DNA of 64,000 nt. Source: Mytilus edulis (lineage: Eukaryota). The translations under genes were made by a program, and so were the position numbers. Positions 18,649 to 46,277 of this stretch are shown one piece after another (the stretch's first letter is position 1; every line of letters begins with the position of its first letter). The notes beneath the pieces are model-generated. The model made no database searches. It was given only the letters and a program-made list of their open reading frames with translations, and had not been told where the DNA came from. The stretch is from assembly GCF_963676685.1 (NCBI RefSeq), contig NC_092353.1:36518001-36582000 (forward strand), read 5' to 3'.

Positions 18649-18672
18649 CAATAATAATCTTTAAATATAGTT

Positions 18673-19329
18673 ATAACACAAGTATTAGACCAGAATAATG
18701 AACATGGATCCTGGAGTCAAGTTGAAAGGAAAGAAAAGAAAGAGAAACCAAAAGTATTGCTAGTTGGAACATCTAACACTGAACAAATTAAAACAGAAAG
18801 ATTAAGTGCACAATTTGATACAATGAAGAAAATAGCATACCATATTGATCAAGCAGAAAAGGTTATTGATGAACTAGAAGAATCTTATAACCCGGATGTT
18901 ATCGCCTATCATATATTGAGCAACGAACTTACGAAAAAATCCTCATCAGAATGTGTCTTACAACTTGAGAAACTTATACAAAAGACTAAAGAAAAAAGGC
19001 CAGACTCAAAAATAGTAGTCTCCTTGGCAACAAACCGAAGTGATGAGCGCAAATATAACTTAAAGGTAAATACCGTGAATTCCCTAGTAAAAGAAATGCA
19101 CGAGGAATCTAGTGATTTCGTTATTTGCGACAACCATAATCTGTCAGTTTCTGGTGAAATAAATAAAAAGTTTATAAATAATGATGGCTATCATTTAAGT
19201 GATGTAGGTGTAAAAGTTCTTGCCGCTAATATCAGGAAGTGTGTGGATCAGATTCTAGGTATCCCATTCATCAAACGCAGAGGGCCTGTTAACCGTAAGC
19301 CATGGCAAAAACCAAAAAGAGGCAGTTAA
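18673..19329 (+). CDS. LINE ORF1 C-terminal part: SGNH/GDSL esterase-like domain
   Basis: Block I LLVGTSNT, block III YHILSNEL, block V DGYHL..G...LA..I. The frame is open upstream of the TTG called at 18757 and has no ATG start, consistent with truncation. Confidence 0.8.
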   Translation: MTQVLDQNNEHGSWSQVERKEKKEKPKVLLVGTSNTEQIKTERLSAQFDTMKKIAYHIDQAEKVIDELEESYNPDVIAYHILSNELTKKSSSECVLQLEKLIQKTKEKRPDSKIVVSLATNRSDERKYNLKVNTVNSLVKEMHEESSDFVICDNHNLSVSGEINKKFINNDGYHLSDVGVKVLAANIRKCVDQILGIPFIKRRGPVNRKPWQKPKRGS

Positions 19330-22300
19330 ATCTATGCGTGTGGAACGTTGATGGTATAAAGACAAAAGATTTTGACAAATTTAATGATTCTAGTCTATTG
19401 AAACAAATAAGTTTATATGATATTGTAGGTCTAGTAGAAACTCACAATAATAAATCATTTAGCTCACCTCTATGTAACTATAAAATTTATCATAATTTTA
19501 GAAATCAAAATGAAAAGTCTAGAAGACTTTTTGGAGGTATAAGCGTTATGGTACGGAGGTCAATATCTGCAGGAGTAGCCCCCCTCCCTATCACAAATTC
19601 AAATTTTATGTGGTTTAGATTAGACAAAAACTACTTTTCCCTTAATAGAGACTTATATATATGTTTTCTACATATACCCCCTGAAAACTCTACTTATTCT
19701 ATTAAAGAAGGGGACCAATTTATAAATGATATCACAAATATGTATGATAAAGGGGACATTGCACTGTTTGGAGATTTCAATGCCCGTGTTGCTGTAGATG
19801 TTGACTTCATACCTAATGATAATTGTTCAAAATTTATGCCTGATGAACATTACATTGAGGATGTACCATGTACTACTAGAGAAAGTCAAGATCAGGTAAG
19901 ATGCAACAGAGGGAAAAGCTTGATTGACTTATGTATCCAAAGTAGACTAAGAATCCTTAACGGAAGGACATTAGGTGACTTGTCTGGGAAATTTACAGCC
20001 CACTGTTCCTTGGGCAGTAGTGTAATTGATTATATAATTGGAAGTGAAAGTATTTCACATAGATTTTTATGTATGAAAGTCCATGATTTTCAAAAATCTA
20101 TTTCAAATCATTGTTTGTTGTCATGTATTCTATCTGTAGATTTTGACGAACAATTAAATTCTGAGACAACAAAACTATTTCCACTTCCCCTAAGATATAA
20201 ATGGACTGATGGGTCTATTAGCAAATTCCAGGAAGCGTTGGCTTGTCCCTCTGTTGCATCTAAACTTGAAGAATTTAATAATTGTAATATAAGTTTAGAT
20301 AAAAATGGTATTGAGAAAGCTGTTGTTGATATGACCAATTGTATTTTAGAAGCTGCAAATATTTCTCTAAAGGCAAGGAAAGGGGTCATGAGAAAAAATA
20401 ATAAGAAAAAGAAAAAACCATGGTTTACCCCTGATCTACATGAAATGAAAACTTCGTTAGATTATCTAAGTAAACAACTTACCTTTAGACCTTTTGATAA
20501 CCAACTTAGACATAAATGTTTTTGTCTAAGTAAGCAGTATAATAAACTAAGGAAGGAAAGGCGACGGAACCATTTTAAAGATATAGTTAATAAAATGAAA
20601 AACCTCTCTACAAAAAACCCCAAACAGTTTTGGGAAATTGTTAATACACTCAAATTTTGTGACAGTGAAAAAGAGGAAATACCAATTACCCCCAGTGTAT
20701 TACTGGATCACTTTAAGGAGTTAGATAAGGTCTCAGGTGAAAAATCTTTAATTAATGACTATTTTAAGAACTGTCTAAATACAACTATAATTCCTAATGG
20801 AACAGATATATTAGACAACCCAATCACTATAAAAGAAATTAGTAAAGCTTGCCTAAAGCTTAAAAATAATAAAAGCAGTGGTCATGATGGTATTTTAAAT
20901 GAAATGATTAAGTATGGCCAGTTCGCACTGATGCCATCTTTGATTAAATTATTTAATAGTATTTTGTCATCTGGTATTTATCCAGAAAGTTGGTCAAATG
21001 GTATAATAATCCCTATTTTTAAACAGGGTGATAATCATGATCCTGGCAACTATAGAGGAATAACTATAACTAGTTGTATGGGCAAAGTTTTCAACTCCAT
21101 TTTAAATACACGACTCGAAGAATTTCTTAAAGTTAATAACATAATCGCTGATGAGCAAATTGGGTTTAAGAGGGGATGTAGAACTTCAGACCACATCTTT
21201 AAGCTTAAAACTATTATAGATAAATATTTAAATAAGTCAAAAAAACTTTATACTTGTTTTATAGACCTTAAAAAGGCATTTGACTCTGTGATCCACCCTG
21301 CCCTTTTATTAAAGCTTGCAAAAGCTGGTATTGGTGGGAAATATCTATCTATTCTACAATCCATGTATACAAATATTGGATTAAATGTAAAACTTAACAA
21401 TGAAAGTATAACCGAAGCCTTTCCTTCAAATATTGGTGTTTTTCAGGGAGACAACCTTAGTCCTAACCTGTTCAATGTATTTATCAATGATATCACCAAG
21501 ATATTTGATTGCTCCTGTTCACCAGTTTCTATGGGAACTAAATCTATTAACTGTTTGCTATATGCCGATGATTTATTGTTGATGTCAGAAACTAAAGAGG
21601 GTCTTCAAAATAGCATGAATAAAGTGTTTGAATATTGTAATGAGTGGGGACTTGGCATCAACTATCGAAAATCAAAAGTACTTATATTCAATAAGGGAAG
21701 TAGAATTCCTAAAGTTAATTTCTACATTGGTGAATCAGAAATAGAAATTGTAAAACAATACAAGTATCTTGGTGTTATATTTACTGCAAATGGTAGTTTT
21801 AATAATGCGCTAAAGGACCTATACACCCGAGGCCAAAAAGTTTTTTTCAAAATAACTAATGTATTTAAAAATATGTCTTGTGATGCAGAACATTTTTTGT
21901 ATGTATTTGACCATACTGTCAAACCTGTACTTTTATATGCATCCGAGATAGTGGGGATGTTTAAACCCTCTTTAGATGATAACTTATTTGAAAAAGTTTA
22001 TAAATATCTCCCATTGGAGAAACTTAATTTGTCTTTATGTAGATATATTTTATCAGTTAATAAAAAGACAAGCAAATTGGCCTTGTATGGTGAATTAGGT
22101 CGATATCCAATTTATATTGATATTGTTTCGTCTATGTTAAAATATTGGACTAGACTTGAAAATGATAAAACAGGTGATAAACTTTTATCTCATGCACTTG
22201 CAGAGAATCTACTCATGATTGAAAATAATCAAAATTGCTGGTTAAGCTCAATAAAAAATATTCTCAAGAAATTTAATATGTTCAACTCTAATGAGTCAGA

Positions 22301-22838
22301 ATTAACTCAATTACATGTTTCTATGAAAAATGGTGATATCCAAAGGATAATAAAATCTACTAAAAGTAAGTTTGAATCTAGATGGTTTCAACAACTTCAA
22401 ACCAGTGAGAAACTGAGAACATATAGAACTTTCAAAAACATTTTCAAATTTGAAAATTATCTTGTTAATATTTGTAACGAAAATGATAATATTAACATGA
22501 GTAGATATAGAACCAGCAATCATAGACTGCAAATTGAATTGGGTAGATATACAATACCAAAAACACCTGTTAATGACAAAACATGTAAGAACTGTTCCTC
22601 TTGTGAAGTAGAAGATGAAAAACACATTTTATTAGATTGCCAAAAATATTTTACTATTAGGCAAACCTATATAGACATTTGCTATAATAAGAATAGTTCA
22701 AAACTGAACACAGATAACAAATTTATTTGGCTTATGAGTAATGAACATGCCAATGTATGTAGAAATATATCTAGATTTCTAAGTTTGAGTATATTTTACA
22801 AAACTGATAGCAAAGCAACAGAAAAATTATCATCTTAG
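19302..22838 (+). CDS. LINE ORF2: apurinic endonuclease + reverse transcriptase + C-terminal Cys/His motif (1178 aa)
   Basis: WNVDG, LVETH, GDFNAR, SVIDY, SNH (APE). NYRGITI, FIDLKKAFDSV, QGDNLSP, YADD, YLG (RT). CKNC..CEVEDEKHILLDC. Confidence 0.95.
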   Translation: MAKTKKRQLNLCVWNVDGIKTKDFDKFNDSSLLKQISLYDIVGLVETHNNKSFSSPLCNYKIYHNFRNQNEKSRRLFGGISVMVRRSISAGVAPLPITNSNFMWFRLDKNYFSLNRDLYICFLHIPPENSTYSIKEGDQFINDITNMYDKGDIALFGDFNARVAVDVDFIPNDNCSKFMPDEHYIEDVPCTTRESQDQVRCNRGKSLIDLCIQSRLRILNGRTLGDLSGKFTAHCSLGSSVIDYIIGSESISHRFLCMKVHDFQKSISNHCLLSCILSVDFDEQLNSETTKLFPLPLRYKWTDGSISKFQEALACPSVASKLEEFNNCNISLDKNGIEKAVVDMTNCILEAANISLKARKGVMRKNNKKKKKPWFTPDLHEMKTSLDYLSKQLTFRPFDNQLRHKCFCLSKQYNKLRKERRRNHFKDIVNKMKNLSTKNPKQFWEIVNTLKFCDSEKEEIPITPSVLLDHFKELDKVSGEKSLINDYFKNCLNTTIIPNGTDILDNPITIKEISKACLKLKNNKSSGHDGILNEMIKYGQFALMPSLIKLFNSILSSGIYPESWSNGIIIPIFKQGDNHDPGNYRGITITSCMGKVFNSILNTRLEEFLKVNNIIADEQIGFKRGCRTSDHIFKLKTIIDKYLNKSKKLYTCFIDLKKAFDSVIHPALLLKLAKAGIGGKYLSILQSMYTNIGLNVKLNNESITEAFPSNIGVFQGDNLSPNLFNVFINDITKIFDCSCSPVSMGTKSINCLLYADDLLLMSETKEGLQNSMNKVFEYCNEWGLGINYRKSKVLIFNKGSRIPKVNFYIGESEIEIVKQYKYLGVIFTANGSFNNALKDLYTRGQKVFFKITNVFKNMSCDAEHFLYVFDHTVKPVLLYASEIVGMFKPSLDDNLFEKVYKYLPLEKLNLSLCRYILSVNKKTSKLALYGELGRYPIYIDIVSSMLKYWTRLENDKTGDKLLSHALAENLLMIENNQNCWLSSIKNILKKFNMFNSNESELTQLHVSMKNGDIQRIIKSTKSKFESRWFQQLQTSEKLRTYRTFKNIFKFENYLVNICNENDNINMSRYRTSNHRLQIELGRYTIPKTPVNDKTCKNCSSCEVEDEKHILLDCQKYFTIRQTYIDICYNKNSSKLNTDNKFIWLMSNEHANVCRNISRFLSLSIFYKTDSKATEKLSS

Positions 22839-24346: not shown

Positions 24347-25936
24347 ACTTTACTTTACAACATATTATAAAGTTATATTATCAGTTGTTACATGTAACTG
24401 ACCCTAGATATTACATTTATAATATGTTTCACACTCGTAGCTTTATTATTCTTCTTAAACAGTCCAGTTAGAATCGGGATGTCGAATCTGATGCCTTGTA
24501 TGAGTATAGTGCCATGCTTTCTACACATTAAGAACCCTTGCAACAACTCTTTGACGGATCCGTATGTGGCCAGTAGCAAGGCCAAATTTCTATCCCTATC
24601 CAATATAGCACTATTTTCCAGTGGCAGTCGAAATTAATTAATTAATTTTCCTTAACATCTTCATTTACATTCATATAATAGTTTGTTTTTAATTCTTTGT
24701 ATTGTGTTATTAAAGATCTGTTTGTATATATTTTGTTCTACTGTTATTGTGAATTTTAAAGTTTCACAAACCTTGGTTTGAGGTCTCTTTTGGAACAAAA
24801 TCTTTAAACTTAAGCTCATCGGAAAAATGATTGTTTCGGTTTTCTGCAAGGTCCCGTGGTCTCCTGTAGGTCATTTAGACTTCGATTGTAAGTTTCAAAA
24901 ATAGAATTTATATTTATGAATTGTTTCACTTTGTCCGCATGGTACAATTAAAAGATATTTTCAAATAGCCAATACTGTTCTCATACTTTCTTCATATATT
25001 TATTGGAGAATAGGATTATTAATGGATATTAAATTCAAAATCGTACCCCTATTAATATTCGGTTTAAAACGTTCTAATTGGCTAAAAATGGTAAACCAAT
25101 ATAAACTCGGCAAATTGAATGATAATATTTGCATATTTTAGTACAAGCAATGCAGTAAGCAATTGTATCTTAGATTATAAAGTGGCAATCTATTATAATA
25201 GAAAAACAAAGGATATGGGGTATATATCCATGTCACAAAATCAGTACATACACTACGAAAAACACAAGCAAAAAGCAAAAGAACAGCGTTGTATTGCTAT
25301 TCTATATCTCAAAGTAACCGCAAGGCCTTAAACACGGAACAAAGAACTTTCTTTTTTTTTTTTTTTTTTTTTTTATCTAAAATCTGATTTATTGCACTAT
25401 TGCTGTTATAATTAATACCATGTCTACAGCATTTGACAGGGCATCCCTGAAGCGTTAGTTTTACTGAACAAACAGGGAGATTGTTCAGTAAATTATTAAT
25501 AATAATAATAAATGGTTAGATTTACATGTTACAATATTGTGTATACAGATTATACAGATTACTACAGAAATTATTTTCCGGAAAAAAAATACATTCGTGA
25601 ACCGCTTTGACTCTGTATATATGCTAGTTGACCTGGTCATGACCTATTGATCAAGGATTACACGATGGAGGCAAATTAACAGTCGAAGCAGTTTGTTGTA
25701 TATTAATTATGTAGGTGAACATACTTGGTTACGAATTGAAGTACATTATATAATTATATTTATTTATGAGTATGCGATATATTAAATGAAGGATGCGTCA
25801 GAATAGTAGGGGTTTAATCTTTATCACTGATCATGATCATGACGAAGTCTACAACACGTGGTTTTAAGATTAACTAATATAGAGACACATGTATTGCTGA
25901 ATAAATTAGCATATAGCATATATGCGAGAATAATAA

Positions 25937-28900
25937 TTATATGTATAAGCTTATTTCTTTCAAAATTTTACCATGTTTACCACCTGAAAGTGTCGAAATA
26001 TTTAAGTAGTTCAAAAAATCTTTTTTGAACAGGGCATACACATCAAAATTTGTAGTTTTATAATTTGAACTGTGAGTGCACTTGTGGATAGAAAATGTAA
26101 TGAGTGTCACCAACAGATTTATATCATAATAATTGATATCACCGATTTTATATCCTATAATGAGGTTTCTGTAGTTTAGGATATGATGACCTATTTTAAC
26201 TTTATTTAATAGTATTTTGATCTTTTCCCAAAAAGTTTTAAAGTAACGACATTCTAGGAAAAAATGTTTATAATCTTCTGTTACATTACATAAGTCGCAT
26301 TTACTGTCTTCTTTTATCTTCCATTGAAAAAGCAATTGTTTGCAAGGAAGGATATGATGCAGCAATTTCCATTTAAATATTTTTAATCTGTTATCTTTTA
26401 AATAAGTAAATATAAAGTTAAGCATTGATTTAATTGGAATTAAGGAATCTAAATTTAGGACACGTTTCCATTTAAAGAAACCTGGAGGCGTGTCTTCATT
26501 TCCACTATTAATGTGTGTGTATATCTGTTTTGTTTCCATTACTTGTAAAATTATTATCTTATTTTTTTCTTTTGTATTGATGCAAAGGTTAAGTATATTT
26601 TTTACTTTTGATTTTATTGATTTTTCTGATTTAAGTACCTTGAGCCATTCATTTGGTAAGGCATAATTAAGTTTTGAAATTTCAAACATTAAATTGGATT
26701 TTGAGGATATTTTATTAGATATTATTTCTTGAGAGATATTACCATTTTGGTCTATTATATCGTTAACGTATATAATACCTTCTTTTATCCAATTTATAAA
26801 AACTAAACACTTTCCTTGAAATTTTATCAGTTTGTTTCCCCATAAGATTTGTTGTCTAATGTTTTTAAAATTCATATTGAGTTTGGTATTATTTAAATTT
26901 TGTACTTTGAACCAAGACTTTACAATTTCTAAGTAGAATTTTGGTAAAGTTTTATGTAGGTTTTGTATTGAGTAAATGTTGTCTAGATTCATGTAAAGTA
27001 GCATGAAATTAGCACCAAATTTATTAAAGTAAAATGTCGGAATTACTTTCCAGTTAGCAAAATCATCTGCAGTAAGTCTTTTTATCCATGCTATTTGTAG
27101 TGCAGTTATATAATTGTCTATATCTGTCATTTTAAGCCCTCCCTCAGTAGTATTTTTGCTAAGGGTGGTTCGTTTGACCTTTTCTCGTTTACCATCCCAT
27201 ATAAAATTGTAGATAATAGTTTTAAACTGTTGAATAAATTCATGTGGTAGGTTTGTGACTGAAGCTAAATATGTAAGGTTAGGTATAAGAAGAGATTTTA
27301 CAACTGTTATTTTACCTATCATTGTAAGATTTCTTTTTTTCCAATTACTTATTAATTTGTCACATTTCTGTATTATTTTTTCAGTATTCAGCTTATCACA
27401 TTCAGCTCGATCTGTTCCAAAATAAACTCCTAGACTTTTTATTGGTCCTTTATTCCATGTTATATTTTCAAACTTATCTTTACAATGTTTTAATTTTCCT
27501 AACCAAATGCCCTCAGTTTTTGATCTATTTAATTTTAAACCTGATAGCGTTCCAAAGATTTCAATAATATTAAGAGTGTGACGTACTTCATCTTTTGATT
27601 TTAGAAAAAGTGTTGTGTCGTCAGCTAATTGAGAAATCTTTAAACTGTGTGTTTTAGTATCTAGCTTAATTTGAAAACCTTTGATGTTGTTGTCTTGTCT
27701 TATTCTGCAGGACAAAATTTCTACAGCAATAACAAAAATCAGGGAACTTAACGGGCAGCCTTGTCTAATACCGCGTTTAATGTTATATGGTGATGAGATC
27801 CACCCATTGTTTAACATACAACCCGTTATGTCTTTGTACAGAGTTTTAACCCATTTGATAAAAGGATTTGGAAGGCCGAATTTCTTGAGTGCTTCATACA
27901 TAAATGGCCATTCCAATGAGTCAAAGGCCTTGGAAAAATCTATGAAGAGCAATGCTCCTTCAATATTAAAGTATTCTGCATGGTCTATTATGTCTTGAAT
28001 TTGACGAATGTTGAAACCTATATATCTATTTTTTATGTAACCATTTTGGTCACTATGGATGATTTTAGTTAGTATTGGTTTAAGACGTTGTGCTAAAGAA
28101 TATGCCATAAGCTTTGTATCAACATTGAGTAAAGTAATTGGTCTATAGTTGTCTAAAAGAAGTGGGTTTCCCTTTTTATATAATAAAGAGACTACTCCTA
28201 TTTTTTGTAGTGTGCTCATTTCTTCCTTTTGATAGCATGTGTTAAAAACTTTAACAACAATTTCTTTTAAATTTGTCCAGAAGGTTTGATAAAATTCTAC
28301 ACTGATCCCGTCGATGCCCGGTGATTTATTTAATTTCATAGATTTAATAGCTTCTGTACATTCTTTTATGGTAAGCTCCCCTTCTAGATTTTGAGTTTCC
28401 TCATGAGAAAGAGTTTTATCTACTTTTGTTTCTGTTATATATTTTTTTATTTCATTTTCATTAGGATTTGTACTTTTATATAAATTTTCATAGAAGTTTT
28501 TTTCTAACTTTAAAATTTCAGATGAATCTGTTATAATTTCTCCTTTTTCATTCGTAAGTGCAGAAATATTTTTATGAGTTTGTCTGGATTTTTCAAGGCC
28601 TATAAAAAATTTTGTGTTTTTTTCTCCTTCTTCTGTCCATTTTACACGTGATCTAACCTGAGCTCCCTTTGCTTCATTTATGTAAAGGTTCTCTAGTTTT
28701 TTCTCAGCATTGTTTATTCTATTTTGAACATTATTATCCTGTAAGTTTTCTGCATTTTCGTTCAATTTTTTTAATGACAGTTCTAATTTAATTATTTCAT
28801 TTTTATTTTCAGCTTGTTTTTGCCTACAGTATTTAATGGTTATGTCTCTTACTTCAGCTTTAAAAACGTCCCACTTAACTCGAGGATCTACAGCCGTAGT

Positions 28901-29743
28901 AAGTATTTTTTGTTTATAAGTTTGAATTAAGTTATTAATGAGATTTTGATATTTTGTGTCATTCAATATACTGTTATTAATTTTAAAGAAACCTCGGCCT
29001 CTACTGTGTGCTTTGTGTCTTAGCTTTAATGAAATTGCCTGATGATCAGTGTAAGAAATAGCAGCGGGTCTAATATCTGCTGCTGTAATATGTGGTCTTA
29101 TATCAGAGCTAATAAGAAAATAATCTATTCTGCTTGCTATGTTAAAGTTATTTTTCCTTCTCCAGGTGAACTGTCTTTTGTTTGGGTTAATTTCTCTCCA
29201 TATATCAACTAACTTATGTTTTTTTATTAATTGTTTCAAACTATTTACAGGTTTATTAAATTTTTGTGTACTTGTACTTTTTCTGTCGTTTTCAGTCAGA
29301 CTTTCATTTATATCCCCTCCAAGTATTAAAATGCCTAATCTATTATTTTCAATTAAGTTGTTTATTTTTTTGAAGAAAGAATTTCTATTTCTTTGTATAT
29401 TTGGTGCATAAACATTAACTAAAGTGAAGATGTTATTATCAAGTTCTACATTAATTAGAATAAACCTGCCCTCCTCATCTTTTATTTCATTTATTATTTT
29501 GTGATTTATGTTTTCTTTAATTAAAATTGAAACACCTCTGGATAGGGAATTGCCAAAGCTATGGTATATCTTACATTTAGTTTCACTATTTATTACATTT
29601 ATGTTTTTATCGGTGAAATGGGACTCTTGAATAAACAAGATGTCACATTTTTGATTTTCACACCAAATATATAGTCTGTCTCGCTTTTCTTTTTTTCCTA
29701 GCCCTTGGCAGTTCAAGGAGCAAATATTTAAATTATTACTCAT
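25937..29743 (-). CDS. L1/Tx1 ORF2: endonuclease + reverse transcriptase + zinc finger (1268 aa)
   Basis: SLNCQGL, IQESH, NVYAPN, GGDIN, SRIDYF, TDH. KSPGIDG, NYRPITLLN, DFSKAFD, RQGCPLS, LADD. CDLC...EDYKHFFLEC. Confidence 0.96.
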   Translation of the reverse strand: MSNNLNICSLNCQGLGKKEKRDRLYIWCENQKCDILFIQESHFTDKNINVINSETKCKIYHSFGNSLSRGVSILIKENINHKIINEIKDEEGRFILINVELDNNIFTLVNVYAPNIQRNRNSFFKKINNLIENNRLGILILGGDINESLTENDRKSTSTQKFNKPVNSLKQLIKKHKLVDIWREINPNKRQFTWRRKNNFNIASRIDYFLISSDIRPHITAADIRPAAISYTDHQAISLKLRHKAHSRGRGFFKINNSILNDTKYQNLINNLIQTYKQKILTTAVDPRVKWDVFKAEVRDITIKYCRQKQAENKNEIIKLELSLKKLNENAENLQDNNVQNRINNAEKKLENLYINEAKGAQVRSRVKWTEEGEKNTKFFIGLEKSRQTHKNISALTNEKGEIITDSSEILKLEKNFYENLYKSTNPNENEIKKYITETKVDKTLSHEETQNLEGELTIKECTEAIKSMKLNKSPGIDGISVEFYQTFWTNLKEIVVKVFNTCYQKEEMSTLQKIGVVSLLYKKGNPLLLDNYRPITLLNVDTKLMAYSLAQRLKPILTKIIHSDQNGYIKNRYIGFNIRQIQDIIDHAEYFNIEGALLFIDFSKAFDSLEWPFMYEALKKFGLPNPFIKWVKTLYKDITGCMLNNGWISSPYNIKRGIRQGCPLSSLIFVIAVEILSCRIRQDNNIKGFQIKLDTKTHSLKISQLADDTTLFLKSKDEVRHTLNIIEIFGTLSGLKLNRSKTEGIWLGKLKHCKDKFENITWNKGPIKSLGVYFGTDRAECDKLNTEKIIQKCDKLISNWKKRNLTMIGKITVVKSLLIPNLTYLASVTNLPHEFIQQFKTIIYNFIWDGKREKVKRTTLSKNTTEGGLKMTDIDNYITALQIAWIKRLTADDFANWKVIPTFYFNKFGANFMLLYMNLDNIYSIQNLHKTLPKFYLEIVKSWFKVQNLNNTKLNMNFKNIRQQILWGNKLIKFQGKCLVFINWIKEGIIYVNDIIDQNGNISQEIISNKISSKSNLMFEISKLNYALPNEWLKVLKSEKSIKSKVKNILNLCINTKEKNKIIILQVMETKQIYTHINSGNEDTPPGFFKWKRVLNLDSLIPIKSMLNFIFTYLKDNRLKIFKWKLLHHILPCKQLLFQWKIKEDSKCDLCNVTEDYKHFFLECRYFKTFWEKIKILLNKVKIGHHILNYRNLIIGYKIGDINYYDINLLVTLITFSIHKCTHSSNYKTTNFDVYALFKKDFLNYLNISTLSGGKHGKILKEISLYI

Positions 29744-30920
29744 CTAAATAATGAACTATACATGTATTAGCAAAGATTACTACAGAGATATACATCATAA
29801 CAAACTGTTTTAATTTGTTGTATACAATACAGCTATGACTAAACGTATAATAGTAGTAATGCATGAGTATATATAATATATATGTATCATTATAATATGT
29901 GTTTTTTACAATAATACAGTTTTGTACTTGTGCCTGTATGTAAATGTATATAGGAGCTTGATTTTCAGAAATTACTTTTTCTATTTTCAGATATTTGAAT
30001 TGTTCAATAAGGAGTGTTCGAGTGCTCAACAACATTATAACTGTGATCAAATGAAATATATTCTCAACAGTTTTTGATGACGTCTTAAATTTTCCATACA
30101 TTTGAACCTGGAAATGATATCTTTTTGTGTAGAATTCTTTGGAGATTTTTAAATGTTCACTTAACGCTGCTGTAAATGTGTGTATCATGTGTTTTAATAA
30201 GATATGGATCTGTACTTCAAGTGAATATACTGCGTCAAAATGATTAGCATAGCTGGTTGTGAAATATGTGTGTCTTGATAGTATGGTGCAAAAATATATG
30301 AGTGCAATTCGTTTCGTACTTCCTGTGTGTGATGCGGTATATGGTGATATACTACATATAGTTGCGTACCATATTTGCAATTTCGTAGGAATATGAAGTG
30401 GTTGGTATATTTTCCGATTATTCTTGTTTGAATTGCAGAAAATAGAAGATTTGTTTGTACAATCAGTGCTTACGTGTAATAAAAGCATTTTGGTGATGAA
30501 CCGAATTAAACAAATGCAGCCTAATGACGTGGATAGTAGAACTAGTGATCGTTTCATTTTGTTAACTAGTGAATAAAAGTTTTTTCTTTTTGTTGGTTTA
30601 ATGCTTGTTTTAAAATTATCTGTTTCTTTCAGACATATGTTTTTGTTGGTATTTTGTGAATAAACATACATATAAGATAAATTACATATTACACTGTTTT
30701 CTATTTCTACATCATCATGATCATCAATTGAGAACATATGATCTAGTTTTGTGTCATATTTCTCTTTTTGATTGGTTAATATACATGTACTACTCTTATC
30801 AACACAAATACAATATACAATATGTATAGAGGATAAGTAGTTTTCATTTTCGATATCATTATTCAAACACATATAATCTAAATTATATCGTATTTTTTTT
30901 TTTTTTTTTTTTTTTAACAT
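29736..30920 (-). CDS. Uncharacterised hydrophobic middle ORF of the Tx1 element (394 aa; possibly ~449 aa from 31086)
   Basis: 1185 nt with no stop codon in very AT-rich DNA, on the same strand as ORF1 and ORF2. Its stop overlaps the ORF2 start (ATGAGTAA). It has several hydrophobic segments. Confidence 0.55.
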   Translation of the reverse strand: MLKKKKKKKIRYNLDYMCLNNDIENENYLSSIHIVYCICVDKSSTCILTNQKEKYDTKLDHMFSIDDHDDVEIENSVICNLSYMYVYSQNTNKNICLKETDNFKTSIKPTKRKNFYSLVNKMKRSLVLLSTSLGCICLIRFITKMLLLHVSTDCTNKSSIFCNSNKNNRKIYQPLHIPTKLQIWYATICSISPYTASHTGSTKRIALIYFCTILSRHTYFTTSYANHFDAVYSLEVQIHILLKHMIHTFTAALSEHLKISKEFYTKRYHFQVQMYGKFKTSSKTVENIFHLITVIMLLSTRTLLIEQFKYLKIEKVISENQAPIYIYIQAQVQNCIIVKNTYYNDTYILYILMHYYYYTFSHSCIVYNKLKQFVMMYISVVIFANTCIVHYLDE

Positions 30921-31157
30921 AATAAATAAAAGTCATGAAAAAACATAAAATGAGAACATTGTTTATGTTTACCATAACATCAGTTGGACACATACAATCT
31001 ATTATTACAAAGAGTTCTTTTTTTTGTTTGTATTTTACACTATAAATAAAAACACAGAAAAAAAGTAAATATATACAAATGTTCATGGAAATAGGTATAT
31101 AATTTTACTATTTAATGCTTATAAAATTTATATACATTTAGTTGAGCCGGATGATAG

Positions 31158-32456
31158 TTAGGGTCCCTTTGGTTTCTGAATATTTGATGTTCGTTCGTGA
31201 ATTTGGTCAGTTGGTGTTGTTGCTGCGCGTTTGTCTTTGCGTCCATCAGGGGTTCCAACATTGTTGTTTCCTTGGAAGTGAAAGAACAATGTTGATTGAT
31301 TAGGATTGTCCTCGTTGTCTTTATTAAGTTGTTGTGTACCGGTTTTTTTGCCAGACTTTTTTTTAGCTTTTGCCTTTTTAATTTCATTGTTATGTTTGGA
31401 TGCTGAAATGCCTTGGTGTTCAGGTTCGTTCATAATGAGAGCTGCATCCTTTTTATTTGAAGCATTATAGCTGAAACTTGCGCTTGTCACATTGAAATTT
31501 TGCATAAAAGACGGAGACTGGTTGGTGGTTCCCATCTTTTCAGTATTTGTTTTAAGTTCAGATGTATTTTCATTTTCACTTGTTGAATCTTCAGATTCAT
31601 GCATGCTAGCATTATTGACGTTGACTGGATGTTCTTGAGCGTGGGCAATAACGGTCTCGAAATTTGGACATTCAGCTTTCTTATGTCCTGGGTTGTTGCA
31701 TGTTGTACATACCCACTCATTTGGGCATTCTCTGAGCACGTGCCCAGTTTGTAGACATTTGTTACATGTGAGCTGAGATGAATCAGTTTTCTGTTCTTTG
31801 TGTAACAAAACGGCCATATATTTACCAATTTTAAGAGTTCTAGGCAAGACCTTTTCCATGGGTTCACAGTATAATATCCTGTCTCCTGTTTGGCAGTTGG
31901 TGAGTAAACCGTCCACTCTGAGTCGCTCTCTGTCTAATGAGTGGACTGTCCCTCCAAGATTTTCTACTGCCCTCATAATCTGTCCATCCTCAGCAGAGCA
32001 TGGGATGTTCTTGACCCTAACACGCCAGTGATGAGGATTGTCATGATCGTATACCTTTGAATTAGGATTGCGGGTATAGATTTTCAAAAGTTTTTTCCTT
32101 AAAACCAGTCCCTTTGTTATTAAGGTGTCTCTGTCAGTTTCAGAGTCGGGATAAATTCGCCACATCCCTTTTACCCTTTGCAAACCTCTGAGGTTCCTAG
32201 AATTAACAATATGATCAATGGATTTGTAAAGTTCAACATGGTTGAGAAACTGACCTATGCTTGGTTTGACATCACCAAACAGGTCTTTCTCTAGCAGGAA
32301 AACTGGCTTAACCGAACCAAGTATCTCGTGTGGGTTCATGGGATTTTCAACCTGATTGTTGGCCATCAGACCGTTTTTCACTGCGTTTTTGTATGACTCT
32401 GGTAGGTTTTTAATATGGCTGACATCAGCACTATTGATGTCCGAACTTGCCATCAT
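31158..32456 (-). CDS. L1/Tx1 ORF1: RRM-like region + two CCHC zinc knuckles
   Basis: CNKCLQTGHVLREC and CTTCNNPGHKKAEC, VRVKNIP, TGDR. The first ATG is at 32456; the track's start at 32516 is a TTG. Confidence 0.92.
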   Translation of the reverse strand: MMASSDINSADVSHIKNLPESYKNAVKNGLMANNQVENPMNPHEILGSVKPVFLLEKDLFGDVKPSIGQFLNHVELYKSIDHIVNSRNLRGLQRVKGMWRIYPDSETDRDTLITKGLVLRKKLLKIYTRNPNSKVYDHDNPHHWRVRVKNIPCSAEDGQIMRAVENLGGTVHSLDRERLRVDGLLTNCQTGDRILYCEPMEKVLPRTLKIGKYMAVLLHKEQKTDSSQLTCNKCLQTGHVLRECPNEWVCTTCNNPGHKKAECPNFETVIAHAQEHPVNVNNASMHESEDSTSENENTSELKTNTEKMGTTNQSPSFMQNFNVTSASFSYNASNKKDAALIMNEPEHQGISASKHNNEIKKAKAKKKSGKKTGTQQLNKDNEDNPNQSTLFFHFQGNNNVGTPDGRKDKRAATTPTDQIHERTSNIQKPKGP

Positions 32457-32682
32457 CAAAATGGTTATTTGTCCGTATATTTGTGAAAGATATTGCAACA
32501 GATAGTTATAATACAAGTGTCTACCTAGTATGCACCTATTCAGTATACTTATACTCTGGATTACGTCTTTAAACTATTGATTTTACTTGGATTTGTAGGA
32601 GCGAAAAAATTTCCGTGGAATACCTTCGGCCCCTTACGTCATCTGAACTTTCATAAATATTCACAGTTCATTTATCTTGCAG

Positions 32683-32907
32683 GTCAATGAAACGTCAGAG
32701 AAACATCACGTGATGGTTAAAGTTGGTGGTGGTTGGGAGACACTGGAAGACTACATGGCCCGTCATGTTCCATACAAGTTTAAGATAACAGAGTATAAAC
32801 GGCCATTATATAATAACACGTGTGAAGTTAAAGACATATATCTTGGAATTAAGTCACATTATAAGTCCTGGAACCAGTCAAAACAGTTTTATTATTCACT
32901 ACTATAA
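32683..32907 (+). CDS. Stand-alone GAR domain protein, coding exon 2 (C-half of GAR + tail)
   Basis: tttatcttgcag| VNETSEKHHVMVKVGGGWETLEDYMARHVP… matches the GAR hallmark HVMVRVGGGW.TL..YL..HDP. Phase 0. Confidence 0.85.
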   Translation, partial: VNETSEKHHVMVKVGGGWETLEDYMARHVPYKFKITEYKRPLYNNTCEVKDIYLGIKSHYKSWNQSKQFYYSLL

Positions 32908-35120: not shown

Positions 35121-36637
35121 ATAATGACGACATTAATGAAAAGTTTGGTTAAAATAAAAGGACTGAGTAGCGTGTTCTTAGAAGTAAGGAGCGAAGTAAG
35201 GAGTAAGACAACCCGCTGAGTGTTTCGGTCTGGTACAAAATAGTATTCATACCCATATCAAATGATCTTTGTTCTCGTCCTTCTATGTATATTATGATCG
35301 TCATACGTCAATTCATGATCTTCAAAAGAAAACATAAGTATAAGATTTTGCAAATTTTCTGCACAATGTGTTTGCCATTATAGTTATGTTATGTAACATC
35401 AGTTTTACACATACAATGTATGTTCGTCCTAATAAATAACAGCCAGTCAAGAGCTCATAAAAATATAATTCTACCACTGTATTGAGGTTAATACGATATT
35501 CTTTTACTCGATACAAGTGTATTTTCTTATGTTTGACGCAAAGCTTACCAAATTTTTCAAATGAATAAAATTAAACTTCTGAGACTGGAGAAATATTGTA
35601 TTGCACGAAATTTGGTGGTGGAATTTGTTTCTCTTATAATTTTTAGACGATATTTAGACACTCTGTATCCATTTGTTCAATTCTTTACAGAAGATGTGTT
35701 CTTTTTTTATGTGACGCCATTTGCATGGTCGTATTTGTCGTGACGTCACACAGGAATGTTCAGCGACAAGCGAGGAAAATTGATGTTAACATTGAGTATT
35801 GACGAATACAAAGTGTAGATCAAACCTGAGACTACTATGCCACGTTTTATAGTAGTTTCAGATCAAACAACCCCCACGCTGATAATAAAAACATACTCCA
35901 ACAGTTTGTAAAAGTATAAATCATTAAAAATTAGGTGAACGGTAATAACCGATTAACAGTATGTATATAAACATATATATAATTAAAATAATTTAACGAT
36001 CAAACATTACTTTAGTAAATGTAAATAATATAAAAGCTTGCAGTTTAATACTTGGTTCATTTAAACAAACCATTATATTTCTTCCAACAAAGAGATTAAG
36101 TAAATTTTAATCTATATTAAATTCATCTTAAATCCTGTATTTGACATAAAAGATAATGACCTAAAGACATATAAAGTTTACTACACATCCATTTATAACA
36201 AAGCCGATTTAAAACTATAGTTGATATTTGAAACAAACCACATCGTAATCTGATATATATATAGTGTTTCAGTTTGATCATAATTTGATTTCATGCCAAC
36301 ATTCTTCAATACACACGGGGACGGTATATTTACCAATACAATATATTAGTTGTAAGCATGTCTTTTATGTAATGTTGAAAGACAAATAAAACGTCAATAT
36401 TACAATTTAAATTGACAATAGACAAAACAAATATTGAATATTGGATTTTCGAAATAACGATCAGTTTTGAGGTCTGTCTGTACATCTTCGTAGACGAGTG
36501 CCATTATTGAGTCTTAATTGTTCGATAACAGCAGAGACATACCGAGAGTATGTACCTTATGAAGCGATATTCACCTTCTTCGATATAGTATGGCTAGCAA
36601 ACAAATATAAAGCTATAAGCTATTATCAGTCAGTAAT

Positions 36638-38272
36638 ATGTACAGAGCTAAAAGGATGCATAAATATTCACCAGATACCGGAGATCCATATAGTGATGAT
36701 AACTATAATTCAGAAGAAGAGGAACGAGTTTACTACAGCTATCCTCAAAGACGCTTGATTAGATGTGTACCAACAAGGACAGTCTCCGAACACCATGATA
36801 ACAGAATTATTAAAAGGTATAGTGTTCGACAGAAAGAACCAGAAAGAGATCGCATTATGTATCCATCATCACATATCGTCAGGAAAACAAATTGTAAAAC
36901 CGAAAGTGAAACTCAATCTTCTTCAGATTATTACAGAGATAACACAGTTTATAAAGTACATGTAATTCCATCAAAGCCAACTGAAAAACGGAATAATAAA
37001 ACACCCAATTTGCATAAAAAGGAAGAACTTGAAACATATTCGTATTCATCTCCATCCTTCCGATTTATCCGCCGAGAAAATTCGGAAAGTGAAAGTGAAA
37101 CCGAATCTTCTACTGATTACAGCACTCAAACTAAACAACCGATTCAAAGGTCAAAAATGAAAACTGCGAGGTTTTCAAATTCATCCCCTAGACGTGTCGT
37201 AACTTATCACATCATTGAAGATCCTTCTGACAGAAAAATAGATCGAAATAAATCGAGTAAATTTGTATCTTCTAATAAATCCGATAATATTGTTAAACGT
37301 AGGATGGAAACTCTTCCTCGAACTCGACCTTATGGTGGTGAAACACGAGGACACAACTTGCCATATCAAACCAAACTTAATGATGATGTTACTTTTCTCC
37401 GACCCTATAGAGAAGTTCGTAGAAAGAATGAGATAAGTGAAAACAAGATGATTGTCAAAGATATACAGCAATCCTTTCCTAACACAAGAAAACCGGAAGG
37501 GTCTATAGAAAGTTACGCGTATACAAGTTCAGATGAAAGTTCCGAATCAGATAGTAGCGATGGATATACAACTGACAGTTCTGAAACTCAACAAAATGAC
37601 AGATATAATGCTCTGTCTACGAGATCAACACAGACAGAATGTCTTCTCGTTGACTATTCGAAAATGGTAAAATCTAGAGAAGAGCAAAGGAAATACGAGC
37701 AAGAACGACGACAACATGCACAGGAAAGGCATATTGTAAGTTTAGTTCAAAAGGAAGTAAACAAACCACGTTTAAAGTCGAACATTACCGGCGATTCATG
37801 TATAACTGCAACTATCGAAAACCCGACAAAACCACTTCCTAGTAATACGAAGGGGACAAGCACGTTGGATGATCCAGAGAAAACAAACGACATTAAGGAG
37901 AATGTTCCGATTGATTTGGAAAAGAAGGAAAGAGATGAGAGACGCAATCAATTAGAAGTATGGACAAATCCTAAGTTCAATTCTGACAATCGGCAAACAA
38001 TTTTAAATAATAATAAACAGGACAATGTTGTGTATAATTTTGATCAATGCAGAAACAACTCCAATACATTAACTGACAAGCGAGACGAAGCACCTGACAA
38101 TATTGACGTAAAAATATATTACGATGAAAATTTTGAATCGATGTACCCGCAGCCACGTAAAAAAGGTTGCCAGTTAGTTTATTATATAGATTTGAGACCA
38201 CCTACAAAAATAGTAGATCCGAAACCATTTGACGTATTCGAACGGCGTATCGTGCCTCAACCGAAACGTAAG
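36638..38272 (+). CDS. Family-A gene A3, exon 1 (545 aa disordered, charged region)
   Basis: Longest family-A copy. It ends at a phase-0 consensus donor aag|gtaaga after QPKRK and contains RSTQT. Confidence 0.82.
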
Positions 38273-38924
38273 GTAAGAAATTGAAAAGAAATAATACAGA
38301 TAAGAATAAAATTTTATAGAAATCTTTTTAATTGAATCATGAAATAACGACTAAACAATTTCTAGAAAAATAGTGACAAATAAGGTATTATTATCCTTAA
38401 ACTTCATATATTTTAGAGTTGCTACTTTAAAGGAAGCCCAATCAAATTATACATAATAGTAGAGTTGAAGCTGTTGTTTGGAAGATTTTTGGATGTTATG
38501 TTGATTTGTATCGGTTGACTATGATTGAATGTATGTGTCACAGATGACTACGGCTATGTTTCAACAATCGTACATGAAACTATAATTCCATTGTGTTTTT
38601 ATCGATTGTGGCATTAGCGAATGCACTTATATCACATGATTTGTGCTTGTAATGTACAGTGCAGATGCATCACGAACTGCTTGCCCCTTTGGAGTACCTG
38701 AGATCCCCCTGGTTTCTGATTGGGTTTGTATAGCTCAGTCACTGTCTGCAATGCACCATTTGTAGACCATGGCCAGACCGTTTTCAATTGAAAATCAATT
38801 TGATATAAAACCATCATTTTGATCTAAAAAAAACAATATGTAAGTGAGACATTTTCAGACTTATATACTGCGGGAAAATTAGTAATGTTCGGATATTTGG
38901 CATAGTGTTGCAGTCTTCAAAATA

Positions 38925-39912: not shown

Positions 39913-40234
39913 AAATAAACACAAAAATGCAATGCAAAGTGTCAAAAAGTAAATTCAACCAGTATTGGAAAAACTTTAACTACTACTTTTATCATTGACT
40001 ACAGTACGATCACTAATATTTCCAATGTAATTATTTCAGAAAAAACATCCCGATTACGCAGTCAAGGTTGGTGAAATAAACACAAAAATGCGATGCAAAG
40101 TGTCAAAAAGTAAATTCACCCAGTATTGGAAAAACTTTAACTACTACTTTTATCATTAACTACAGTACGATCACTAATATTTCCAATGTAATTATTTCAG
40201 AAAAAGCATCCCGATTACGCAGTCAAGGTTGGTG
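39913..40234 (+). repeat. Recent 161-bp tandem duplication spanning the A3 exon-2 acceptor
   Basis: 39913-40073 and 40074-40234 are near-identical and each contains attatttcag|aaaaa(a/g)catcccgattacgcagtcaaggttggtg. Confidence 0.93.
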
Positions 40235-40407
40235 GCGGATGGAATACAATGAATGACTATATGGAAAGACATGAACCAGTGAAAAGATTCGTTTATGAAA
40301 GAGAACATTTAAAAAACTCTGATTTACCGGAGGCAAAGAAAAAGTACTATGGATTCAGATCAAATTATAAGTCACCACGATATAATCAACCTCATCGTAC
40401 TATATGA
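40201..40407 (+). CDS. Family-A gene A3, exon 2 (C-half GAR exon); not in the ORF track
   Basis: KKHPDYAVKVGGGWNTMNDYMERHEPVKRFVYEREHLKNSDLPEAKKKYYGFRSNYKSPRYNQPHRTI*. The phase-0 acceptor matches the donor at 38272. Confidence 0.82.
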   Translation, partial: KKHPDYAVKVGGGWNTMNDYMERHEPVKRFVYEREHLKNSDLPEAKKKYYGFRSNYKSPRYNQPHRTI

Positions 40408-42256
40408 ATCAAATCTATTTTTCAGGACTTTAAGTAGTACATGTTTTGTTATTGTTGAAGTTTTCAGGTCCGGACCGATGTTGTTAGTCTTCTACGGTAC
40501 CATTTGCAATGTCTCAACTGTATATCTATACATGATATTTTTATATCAAAATTTTAATTTTGTAAACTAAGGTTTCAACTCTAAGTTGGCCATATAAAGT
40601 TTAAGCTGATTTGGTGTTATTTAGTTTGATTTTCGTGCTCCAAGATATTTAAATTCTTTTGTACTATACGAGCTTTGTGGATGGTTTTTCAATATCCGAA
40701 ATAAAAATGTGAAGATCTTAGGAAATTAATTAATTTCACCAACAATTTTCAAACGATATTTAAAAAAGAGGCGAAAGATACCAGAGGAAATTCTTACTAA
40801 TAAGGCAAAAATAGACTAACAACGCCATGGCTAAAAACGAAAATGACTTACATACAAACAGATATACATAAAACACAAACTAGACAACTAAAACCTGTGC
40901 AAAACGAGCCCAACCAAAAACTGGTGGTGATCACGGGTGTTCACATGTGCTCCAGAAGAGAAAATATACCCAGCTCTTCATGTGGCATTGACATTTATAA
41001 AAGCAGCCTATGTCGTTCTTTCTGGTGATCTTCAAACAACAAGTGTCTAAAATAATGTTATTTTGATAACTTTGTATACGAATTTTTCTATATGCAATAA
41101 TATATAACAAAAAGAGCGGATAAATAAACACCAAAAGAGCACTTCAAATGGGTACGAAATATTATTAATAAAGATTACGAAATGGTAAGCTGAGAAGTAT
41201 GAAAATAAAAATTTGTGATATGATTGTCAATGAAACTAAGCTAAATCAGAGTCCAAATGATATAGCAGTTATTTACTAAGTATCAGTCATAAGGGTTGCA
41301 TTACCTCAATACTTAGTATTTCTGTATCATTTGTTATAGCAAACCTTCTTTAAATTTACCGTTGGTCAATTTAGAAACATCGAAAACTAAGGTTTCAACT
41401 TAATCAAGCAAATTTTAACATAGATGAATTATGCTATTATTTGTAGTTTCGTTTTGGTCGACGGCTCTGTAGCAGATTGATAACCTTGTTGACTTTCAAG
41501 CATTCGGCTTTGCGCCTAATGAAATCAAGAAAGTGCTTTGGACGCATGAAATTTATTCAGTATTGATTTCATCTTTTCCTACTTTTTGTTCTCGGTTAAT
41601 AATGTTCTTCTACTTATAATCACTATCGTGTCAGTGTGGGTAAAAATAAGTGATGAAAGTTTGGTTCGTATTTTCCAGGTCGTGTTATATGGGTTTTGGA
41701 AATAAAAACTATGATAGATATCTATAAGATGCCCAAGAATGATAACAAAAGATAACTAGAAGCACATTCTACAAGATTTTTATTACTGAAAAACATGAAA
41801 TAATCAAAATTGGAAATGAAACATATTTATGAGGGTCAAAATAGTTAGACGACAAACACGTGTATGAGAAAACCATACCAGTAAAATTTTCAGAAAGGAT
41901 AGCTTGTAGCTCTAAATTTACGTATATATACATTTAAAGGCATGTATTATTCAATTTGTATATTGATTCATTTGAAATTTTAAATGGAAATTTTATCTGA
42001 ATAACAACTGCATACGGATGGTTAGGTTTAAATGCATAATATAGCATATGTTTATTTTAAGTTTGGTACATACGTTTTGTTCATTGTGCATAACAATGCA
42101 ATTTGCCAAAATAAATAATACACTTATCGTGAAGCGGTTAACAAAAACGGTTAAAAAATAAAGACATAGTTGATTTTAGTCTGTGTATTAACCATAAACA
42201 AGGAAGTAATAAGTTTTTGAACTAATCAAAAACTAGAATCAACAGACAACGGTGAA

Positions 42257-43309
42257 ATGAAGAAGAAAAGTGGAAAGTATGAACAATCGAAAAACGAGGG
42301 ATATCTTGGTGTTATGTGTTGTACCAGTGGGAATGTGCAGGAACCATCTTGCTTAAGAACTGTTGAACACTCAGATATAAAGGAAGTAGGTCAAAACAAC
42401 AACAATAATAGTGCAGATCACAAGGATAAAGAACGTGGAAAGTCAATGTCTAGCTCAAAAGACGAATGTCGTCATAGTAATGTAAGTTTGATTAATCGTG
42501 TACAACCTACAAAAGATATTTTTCAAACATCAGAAACTATTGAAGAGCACCCTGAAAATTTAGAAAATGTATTAAATGATACAGATTATGTGTCTAGAAA
42601 CATAAAGAAAAAGAAAAAGAAAAAAACTAAAATACGTAGCAAAGAGGAAAATAATTTCGAACATGCAAAATTTGCAGAAATACTTATCAAGAGGCTTGAA
42701 GATGTATTAGCTAAACAAAATACCAATCAAGACCCTGGGTCTAAAGAGAAACAAACAGCTGATATTAACAGGACTGTGACTAAAGACAGTAAGGAAGGCT
42801 TAATATTAAAACGCAACAATTCGGTGAAAGAAGTTAGAAACGCTTCCAATACAAACAAACGAAATACACATGTACAGTTTAATAACGGAAAGACAACATA
42901 TTCAACAGGAAAAGATACTTACAAAGAATCGAATGCTAGAAAAGCGGATGAGAAAAGGAGAATGCAGAAATCGCCTAATGTATTACATGTTAAAGACCGA
43001 TCATTTCAAAATCAAATTCAAATACATCGGCAAATTAAACCGAAAATTACATACGAAGATTGTATTGTTTTTGGTGGGCGCGAAGAATTACAAAAGCCAT
43101 CTCATATTCAATCGAACAAATATTTCATTATAAAATACGATTCTGATCATGAAGAAAATGAAGAACGGCCAAAAAATTTCTCTCGATATAATCCGTTTCT
43201 TGACAACGTAAATGAAATGAAAAATGGAAAATTTTATCGAGCAAATTCTACTAAACAATGTCATGCTATCCCAAAACGAACTGGAAGGATTTTTAGGATT
43301 GCGAATTAA
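42257..43309 (+). CDS. Family-B copy B1, truncated paralogue of 46278 gene
   Basis: Shares C.SG.V.E.SC..T..HS, KFAEIL.KRLE and SNKYF...YDSDH.ENE.RP...S.YNPF…NEM.NGKF.RANSTK with B2. Homology stops at about 43270. The upstream flank 41850-42200 resembles 46030-46400. Confidence 0.68.
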   Translation: MKKKSGKYEQSKNEGYLGVMCCTSGNVQEPSCLRTVEHSDIKEVGQNNNNNSADHKDKERGKSMSSSKDECRHSNVSLINRVQPTKDIFQTSETIEEHPENLENVLNDTDYVSRNIKKKKKKKTKIRSKEENNFEHAKFAEILIKRLEDVLAKQNTNQDPGSKEKQTADINRTVTKDSKEGLILKRNNSVKEVRNASNTNKRNTHVQFNNGKTTYSTGKDTYKESNARKADEKRRMQKSPNVLHVKDRSFQNQIQIHRQIKPKITYEDCIVFGGREELQKPSHIQSNKYFIIKYDSDHEENEERPKNFSRYNPFLDNVNEMKNGKFYRANSTKQCHAIPKRTGRIFRIAN

Positions 43310-45720: not shown

Positions 45721-46277
45721 TGTTTATTATCGTTGTGACATTATTTTTCATAATTTTTATATTCTTATCATAAATCTAATCAATGGCAATTTATTGACAA
45801 TTTCAATATGAAAATGATATCTTTATGAAAGGGTTGTTTTATCATTTTACATTACAATGTTTATGGAATAAATAAAGAAGGAAAACACTAGAATTGTGAA
45901 AAATTAGAACTCTCACCATGATTGATATCCGATATTCAAGAATGATAGCCATAATCACATGTTTCAACCTTTGTATTCTTCAAGTCAGCAATAATGCATA
46001 AAATCAATAAGTGTTAAAAAGGTTGTGGACCAAGACGTGTTTTAGAAAAATATACAAATTAAATATCCGTATCTATTGGCTTGTCTTAAACTTTATGTAT
46101 AAATGCATTTAAAGGTATGCATTCTTTTGTTCTTACATTGATTCTTTTCAAATATCAAATGGAAATGTTATCTGAAAGAAAACGTATTTAGATTGTTAAG
46201 TTGTTTAAATGCATTTAATAACACAAGATTATTTCAATATTTGATTATACGTTTGATAAATTGTGCATTGAAATTCA

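Follow-up and report, generated by a model that had tools for sequence, protein, structure and literature searches.

Long interspersed elements (LINEs) of the L1 group, including the Tx1-like families, carry two sense open reading frames (ORFs), and a sequence-specific target is a trait of many Tx1 families. How ORF2 is translated from a multi-ORF LINE RNA, and why long spacers persist despite acting as a hindrance to retrotransposition in cell assays, are stated open problems (PMC5381506, PMC4072516). Here, we describe a full-length Tx1-like LINE on the minus strand of a 64,000-nucleotide stretch of the Mytilus edulis genome (contig NC_092353.1, positions 36,518,001 to 36,582,000; hereafter the window), in which the spacer between ORF1 and ORF2 is occupied by a third sense ORF, termed the middle ORF. 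The genome (G000) comprises 1.37 Gb and is AT-rich. Judging from sequence comparison, the third ORF is a real, lineage-wide feature of a tricistronic element whose middle ORF is apparently kept as a frame and not as a protein.

The element resembles described Tx1-like and L1-group LINEs in its ORF1 with CCHC zinc knuckles, in an ORF2 that combines an apurinic/apyrimidinic (AP) endonuclease, a reverse transcriptase (RT) and a C-terminal zinc domain, and in the presence of a poly(A) tail, a target-site duplication and 5'-truncated copies. These domains and ends identify it as a Tx1-like LINE of the L1 group, the accompanying ORF2 tree consisting of own-genome copies only. It differs in carrying three sense ORFs instead of two, in a spacer of 0.5–1.5 kb that forms one open frame, and in lacking a common target sequence, as the flanks differ between the window copy and nine sister copies. 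The Pfam scan gave no match of the window ORF1 to Transposase_22, the vertebrate L1 type.

Long spacers between ORF1 and ORF2, often AT-rich, are also described for L1 elements of fish, frog, lizard, marsupial, afrotherian and megabat, where their persistence and the route to ORF2 are likewise unsettled (PMC5381506, PMC4072516). Those of fish, frog and lizard measure 257–1032 bp; reinitiation across them was called inefficient and risky, and internal ribosome entry sites (IRESs) were proposed (Boissinot and Sookdeo, PMC5381506). The megabat L1 spacer is inhibitory, performed less well in an AUG-free version than in its intact form, and was considered puzzling in its persistence (Yang et al., PMC4072516). 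The vertebrate spacers, which reach up to 719 bp in mammals, differ from the present ones in being treated as non-coding, with no spanning ORF mentioned in the available portions of the two papers (PMC5381506, PMC4072516).

Coupling of a stop codon to the following start is known for SART1 and proposed for human L1, and viral reinitiation requires a stop and a start within about 20–30 nt of each other, mostly out of frame (PMC10275272, PMC5972666). The present element shares with the UAAUG coupling of SART1 and with human L1 a stop and a start that are adjacent or overlapping and mostly out of frame; SART1 has an RNA structure downstream of the ORF1 stop, as here, and in human L1 a gap of ~60 nt is crossed after ORF1 (PMC10275272, PMC5972666). 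In both of these systems ORF1 itself is coupled to ORF2, whereas here a third, apparently protein-neutral ORF lies between them, which would imply two restarts. Sequence-independent upstream ORFs (uORFs) of the GCN4 type are similar in that their translation counts and not their product, but they are only a few codons long, while the middle ORF spans 140–470 codons between two genes. The primate L1 ORF0 is likewise an additional ORF in an L1 element, but it is antisense, 71 aa long and located in the 5' untranslated region (UTR) (PMC5203782); it was the only "third ORF" met in the literature. A literature search that did not extend to most subscription papers, supplements or Repbase, whose annotations may include a third ORF, found no report of a spanning middle ORF, and no such ORF is described in the available portions of PMC10294476, PMC11203168, PMC7140322, PMC8550402 and PMC3894237.

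A continuous frame between ORF1 and ORF2

An earlier note, made from the window sequence alone, had pointed to a long stop-free sense frame in the spacer as improbable by chance, and shuffling bears this out. When the 1414-nt spacer was dinucleotide-shuffled 3000 times, its longest sense frame had a mean length of 63 codons and never exceeded 154, against 396 observed (398 from stop to stop, 394 from the first ATG), which rules out a chance ORF. In the assembled window copy, an A23 run separates this frame from a 67-aa upstream frame, as the note had described. Its prediction that one A fewer would fuse the two into an ORF of ~449 aa agrees with the sister copies: A22 is found in three of the four other young copies that cross the run from upstream (L002, L003 and L005), and L002 and L003 carry a complete, continuous middle ORF of 449 aa. 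The frame is broken further downstream in L005, and L004 has stops at the A-run. The run is interrupted in an older subfamily. The overlap of the middle-ORF stop with the ORF2 start was also read correctly (ATGAGTAA). The reported hydrophobic stretches are present but weak, the best 19-residue Kyte-Doolittle mean being 1.88 compared with 1.86 in the soluble ORF2.

Other origins of the frame were considered and rejected. DNA of the element occurs in 20 sequencing runs from 10 studies, in 14 of them with at least half of its words, and is covered over its entire length by two DNA runs, which rules out an assembly artefact. For an intron, no sense-strand splice was seen at an RNA depth of nearly nil, and retrotransposition would remove an intron. 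Readthrough or frameshifting from ORF1 was discarded as the gaps between the ORF1 stop and the middle ORF (19–117 nt) fall in all three frames. The middle ORF is also not an N-terminal extension of ORF2, an outcome that the earlier note had itself raised: the two are fused in L102 alone, through a 17-nt deletion lacking in its sister L101. This deletion lies ~15–30 nt upstream of the ORF2 AUG, and the fused frame has 928 codons.

Distribution of the three-ORF layout

The M. edulis genome was searched with two endonuclease domains, the first pass returning about 1900 endonuclease candidates, and 79 stretches were taken, a long ORF2 being the main criterion and the spacer playing no part in the choice. 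Together with the window, 56 of them, in which the ORF1 stop and ORF2 AUG could be placed, formed the own-genome set; 23 truncated or disrupted stretches were excluded. Metagenome loci were collected by RT alignment (80 loci), 37 of them with sufficient upstream DNA and 19 with a whole spacer. Grouping at 90% endonuclease identity yielded 25 own-genome and 15 metagenome families.

At least 80% of the spacer lay in one frame in 46 of the 57 own-genome and 13 of the 19 metagenome loci, and the longest spacer frame exceeded all of 60 shuffles in 55/57 and 18/19 loci, respectively. All own-genome families but one (24 of 25) have an intact copy, and so do 10 of the 15 from metagenomes, so that 34 of 40 families depart from the dicistronic layout of the L1 group by a third sense ORF. 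Two of the ten intact metagenome families have short middle ORFs (139 and 159 codons). The layout occurs in every major branch of the ORF2 tree. Furthermore, the metagenome endonucleases share 30–47% identity with that of the window, and several are accompanied by other ORF1 types, which makes it likely that these families belong to other hosts.

The spacers measure 522–1476 nt, one decayed copy aside, and the middle ORF starts about 20–120 nt past the ORF1 stop, extends over ~140 to 473 codons and contains 18–44 AUGs. In 68 of 76 loci, a frame of at least 80 codons terminates between −60 and +45 relative to the ORF2 AUG. Among these, the stop is at +8 in 27 loci; 46 ends are in the −1 frame, 11 in the +1 frame and 11 in frame with ORF2 and stopped before the AUG, so that 57 of the 68 combine stop-start proximity with an out-of-frame position. 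A stop shortly past the AUG is expected once a frame is open so far, and the informative part is the openness together with the lack of fusion: no family showed a family-wide fusion of the middle ORF to ORF2.

A metagenome scan with a single endonuclease sequence gave no matches, and viral contigs gave none. Vertebrate-type L1 (PF02994), sought as a two-ORF control, gave no matches in the window's genome, where the positive control gave none either. The comparison has no short-spacer outgroup.

Some loci deserve separate mention. The metagenome loci L143–L145 belong to a family in which a different, knuckle-free ORF1 is followed by a short spacer of 522 nt; the ORF in it, of 124–139 codons, stops 15 nt short of ORF2, and the family may show the layout in a small or early version. 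In L043 (G000:C10:74755500-74765400), ~210 nt are missing across the junction of the middle ORF and ORF2, and the middle frame enters the ORF2 start. The spacer of L094 is interrupted upstream of ORF2 by an inverted tandem repeat that creates repetitive open frames on both strands. The genome itself holds at least 25 distinct, recently active Tx1-like families together, many with several near-identical intact copies.

Selection on the frame and on the protein

The comparison of sister families indicates that the frame is maintained while the amino-acid sequence drifts at a neutral rate. In three pairs, the middle-ORF values of nonsynonymous and synonymous divergence (dN/dS) were 0.127/0.131, 0.33/0.35 and 0.67/0.66, beside ORF2 dS values of 0.121, 0.35 and 0.65. 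A pooled maximum-likelihood codon model, covering 10 pairs with more than 45% identity (L131 used twice; L098–L100, at 0.80, excluded), gave a dN/dS of 0.88 for the middle ORF, which does not differ significantly from 1 (p 0.076), and 0.09 for ORF2. Frame-blind DNA alignments of nine pairs (2854 codons) showed differences of 0.153, 0.161 and 0.161 at the three codon positions. As the codon-position rates are equal and match the ORF2 dS, little room seems to be left for hidden positive selection among conserved sites. Replacements were no milder in the true frame (mean BLOSUM −0.64) than in the shifted frames (−0.56 and −0.54), and the middle ORF's amino-acid composition tracks base composition. 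Purifying selection on residues, cysteines or transmembrane layout is thus not evident in these alignments.

The neutral simulation predicts 5.5–17 stops per pair, and none are present; the other two sense frames of the spacer hold 17–61 stops each. All 12 gaps among close sisters (six pairs) are multiples of three, a figure of little weight as the pairs were chosen intact and one gap is counted thrice. In five more diverged pairs, multiples of three account for 5/9, 19/29, 12/31, 17/34 and 24/57 gaps.

A conserved hairpin near the start of the middle ORF

The sole motif common to the window's clade is a hairpin ~60–190 nt into the middle ORF, whose parts are a 7-bp stem with a loop of 5 nt, a bulged G and a further, lower stem. 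Across an alignment of 13 copies, 91.7% of the cells are paired and 8 of the 13 base pairs vary in both partners, more than in all 500 shuffles and all slid controls; these copies were hand-picked after a pattern scan, which biases the controls in favour of the hairpin. RNAalifold finds the hairpin unaided, and a covariance model places one hairpin per locus in 44 loci of the window's clade (E <=2e-4), including the window. Rfam contained no match to it, the best being at E 2.5 and 4.5. The window's subfamily lost a loop base and gained an A-run base, a compensated frameshift by which the peptide was rewritten and the stem kept.

Translation of ORF2 and alternative explanations

The middle ORF probably serves as a translated spacer, by which ribosomes reach ORF2 through stop-start reinitiation. 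This option had been named in the earlier note and ranks first among the explanations considered here. Some ribosomes leaving ORF1 would restart at the middle AUG ~20–120 nt downstream, perhaps aided in the window's clade by the hairpin within the first codons. They would then traverse 0.5–1.5 kb of AU-rich RNA, with its 18–44 AUGs, by elongating and not by scanning, end translation at the ORF2 AUG or close to it, and start again there. A premature stop or frameshift would strand ribosomes in the AUG-rich spacer, and broken copies would leave no descendants because the supply of ORF2 in cis is reduced. Two consecutive restarts would also keep the ORF2 protein (ORF2p) scarce, and the peptide would be a by-product, probably degraded. 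In its broader form, we consider it slightly better than an even chance that a widespread invertebrate LINE lineage is tricistronic, with a middle cistron of 140–470 codons that is a "gene without a protein": an essentially random polypeptide of 15–50 kDa, made by every active element, whose synthesis relays ribosomes, selection keeping only the frame, the start after ORF1 and the stop on the ORF2 AUG. The long spacers of vertebrate L1 elements may be the same device or its remains.

Several observations weigh against ribosome delivery through the middle ORF. Two RNA runs yield only 34 and 45 reads over 7.2 kb, and mini-ORFs occupy the first gap in 12 of 19 families. The mechanism leaves unexplained why the spacer length is retained and not lost by deletion. 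The TURBS motif (termination upstream ribosome-binding site) has an 18S-complementary UGGGA core. Calicivirus and influenza B TURBS resemble the present junction in a long ORF whose stop lies no more than about 20–30 nt from the downstream AUG; they differ in that the viral upstream ORFs encode conserved proteins and that the core was not found upstream of ORF2, TGGGA occurring in 5 of 96 loci. The hairpin was not found by the covariance model outside the window's clade, in distant own-genome or metagenome families; with the TURBS core also lacking, the analysis yielded no reinitiation signal for the second junction. Additionally, the loci L058 and L060 have an intact ORF2 and share a one-base gain in an A-run by which the frame ends 134 nt early; this may reflect repeated slippage or a broken frame that still transposed. 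L031 and L032 also share a break, but represent one insertion, as their flanks are common too. Finally, in 11/11 families of the hairpin clade and 14/18 other families, the N-terminal block exceeds the median later block in hydrophobicity, and ribosome delivery alone needs no hydrophobic N-terminus.

This last feature is the basis of the best-placed alternative, which we regard as unlikely: the hydrophobic N-terminus would be a crude signal anchor that brings the translating element RNA to the endoplasmic reticulum or nuclear envelope in cis, the remainder being a neutral tether feeding ORF2. Steps linked to the signal recognition particle are known for Alu and Ty1. Outside the hairpin clade, the true frame shows a modestly higher hydrophobic excess (0.81) than the other frames (0.63 and 0.21), and the first 20 residues are the only part of the AlphaFold model that exceeds a predicted local distance difference test (pLDDT) score of 60. 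Against an anchor, T is equally frequent at codon positions 2 and 3 in the hairpin clade (0.46 and 0.47), where the +1 frame is as hydrophobic as the true one (p 0.37; p 0.20 outside this clade), and the slowing over the first 45 codons affects silent sites as well as replacement sites (dN/dS 0.84). The hydrophobicity behind the signal-like start described earlier is present, but it overlies a U-rich tract and a covarying hairpin, and in the window's clade this start appears to be largely RNA.

Somewhat less credible is a role in RNA shielding, in which elongating ribosomes would block nonsense-mediated decay or ribosome-guided small-RNA processing and ORF2 would be begun otherwise, for example from an IRES. 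Untranslated stretches are linked to decay or PIWI-interacting RNA (piRNA) processing, and shielding likewise predicts selection on the frame only. IRES-like signals were predicted in silico in long vertebrate L1 spacers (PMC5381506). Shielding fails, however, to predict the preferred +8 stop, the −1 frame or the lack of in-frame fusion to ORF2, and ORF2 itself, 3.8 kb long and presumably rarely translated, would stay exposed.

The earlier note had listed among its options an accessory or envelope-like membrane protein, which would here be caught in an arms race, positively selected and conserved sites averaging to a dN/dS of ~1. A long, Cys-rich and hydrophobic ORF fits this picture, and among five deeper pairs (dN/dS 0.12–0.79) three are nominally below 1 (0.54, 0.12 and 0.64). 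Shifted frames passed through the same pipeline give similarly low values, however, and the deep-pair ratios were accordingly rejected as a sign of selection and attributed to alignment bias. Retention of Cys and Trp is 0.66 in the true frame, near the 0.60 and 0.59 of the shifted frames, and the single invariant column among 13 families lies inside the hairpin, in ORFs that vary from ~140 to 473 codons. None of the 13 aligned middle-ORF members had a Pfam match at E 0.05. Searches of 5.8 billion proteins returned only one 99% match (near-identical, from its own family), those of 1.8 billion proteins only four own-family fragments with 68–84% identity, and the best ESM Atlas score was 0.75. 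The AlphaFold model, built on a shallow alignment of 13 poorly alignable rows, has a pLDDT of 39 and is too poor for a fold search. With a dN/dS of ~1, equal codon positions and no family or fold, such a protein is improbable.

Least plausible is a ribosome sink, an overlapping uORF merely throttling ORF2: uORFs that overlap the main ORF out of frame usually act as its repressors (PMC10275272) and surplus ORF2p was argued to be harmful (PMC3894237), but with 18–44 AUGs an internal stop would not free ORF2, so no purge of stops is expected, and stops are purged nonetheless.

Dozens of independent natural families, in which selection acts on a reading frame and not on its protein, offer a direct and cheap test of reinitiation against IRES use, and a bioinformatic test for the L1 spacers of fish, frog and megabat follows. 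These families would also represent a natural long-term experiment in random polypeptide expression, with relevance to de novo gene birth, and they caution that a long conserved ORF does not imply a conserved protein.

The element and its surroundings in the window

The features of the window element are listed in Table 1. Its 3' end consists of AATAAA followed by an A23 tail. The 8-bp stretches at 25344-25351 and 32645-32652 form a flanking target-site duplication, with four additional bases at the 5' junction. The 5' piece of the middle ORF comprises a U-rich tract followed by an A-rich tract.

Table 1. Coordinates of the Tx1-like element and its parts in the window
Feature	Position	Strand	Basis or remark
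Tx1-like (L1-group) LINE, full-length, 7.29 kb	25352..32640	-	Ends set by sister copies
5' UTR	32457..32640	-	
ORF1, 432 aa, two CCHC zinc knuckles	31158..32456	-	Pfam zf-CCHC, 2 stretches, E 6e-8
71-nt gap, ORF1 stop to middle-ORF ATG	31087..31157	-	Contains one 9-codon mini-ORF, 31108-31137
Middle ORF, 5' piece, 67 aa in window copy	30883..31086	-	Ended by A23 run
Degenerate tandem duplicate of hairpin unit	30978..31023	-	Covariance model 22.6 bits, E 0.27, weak; duplication by BLAST
A23 run, slippage hot spot breaking the frame of the window copy	30893..30915	-	Sister-copy comparison
Conserved RNA hairpin (7-bp upper stem, 4-nt loop where 5 nt is usual, bulged G, lower stem)	30857..30901	-	Covariation; model match 36.8 bits, E 1.7e-4
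Middle ORF, main part, 398 codons stop to stop	29736..30932	-	449 aa from 31086 in intact sister copies
Stop-start junction ATGAGTAA	29736..29743	-	ORF2 AUG, middle-ORF stop at +6 to +8, -1 frame
ORF2, 1268 aa: AP endonuclease, RT, C-terminal zinc-binding domain	25937..29743	-	Pfam PF03372 E 9e-11, PF00078 E 4e-33, PF13966 E 3e-9
3' UTR	25375..25936	-	

Within the element, 19 RNA reads from one run (X24) support a GT..AG joint at 28898-29991 (+), on the strand antisense to the element, which points to splicing of an antisense or host transcript within a copy of the element's family. The element is antisense to an exon at 32647-32904 (+) with a GAS2 domain (Pfam E 9e-9) and lies ~40 bp upstream of it, and two further GAS2-like exons follow downstream at 40222-40374 and 49268-49402 (+).

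Additionally, the window contains two sets of long, fast-diverging paralogous exons. The first comprises 582-1814, 13806-15185 and 36611-38284 (+), with ~40% identity, and the second 42221-43309 and 46272-48779 (+), with 35–49% identity; neither set has a Pfam match above the cut-off. The two sets constitute a tandem gene cluster that may be connected with the GAS2 exons. A second, unrelated LINE at 18658-22838 (+) carries an intact frame of 1179 aa with endonuclease and RT, and its upstream frame, which has a weak match to a GDSL esterase (E 2e-4), overlaps ORF2 directly, without a spacer.

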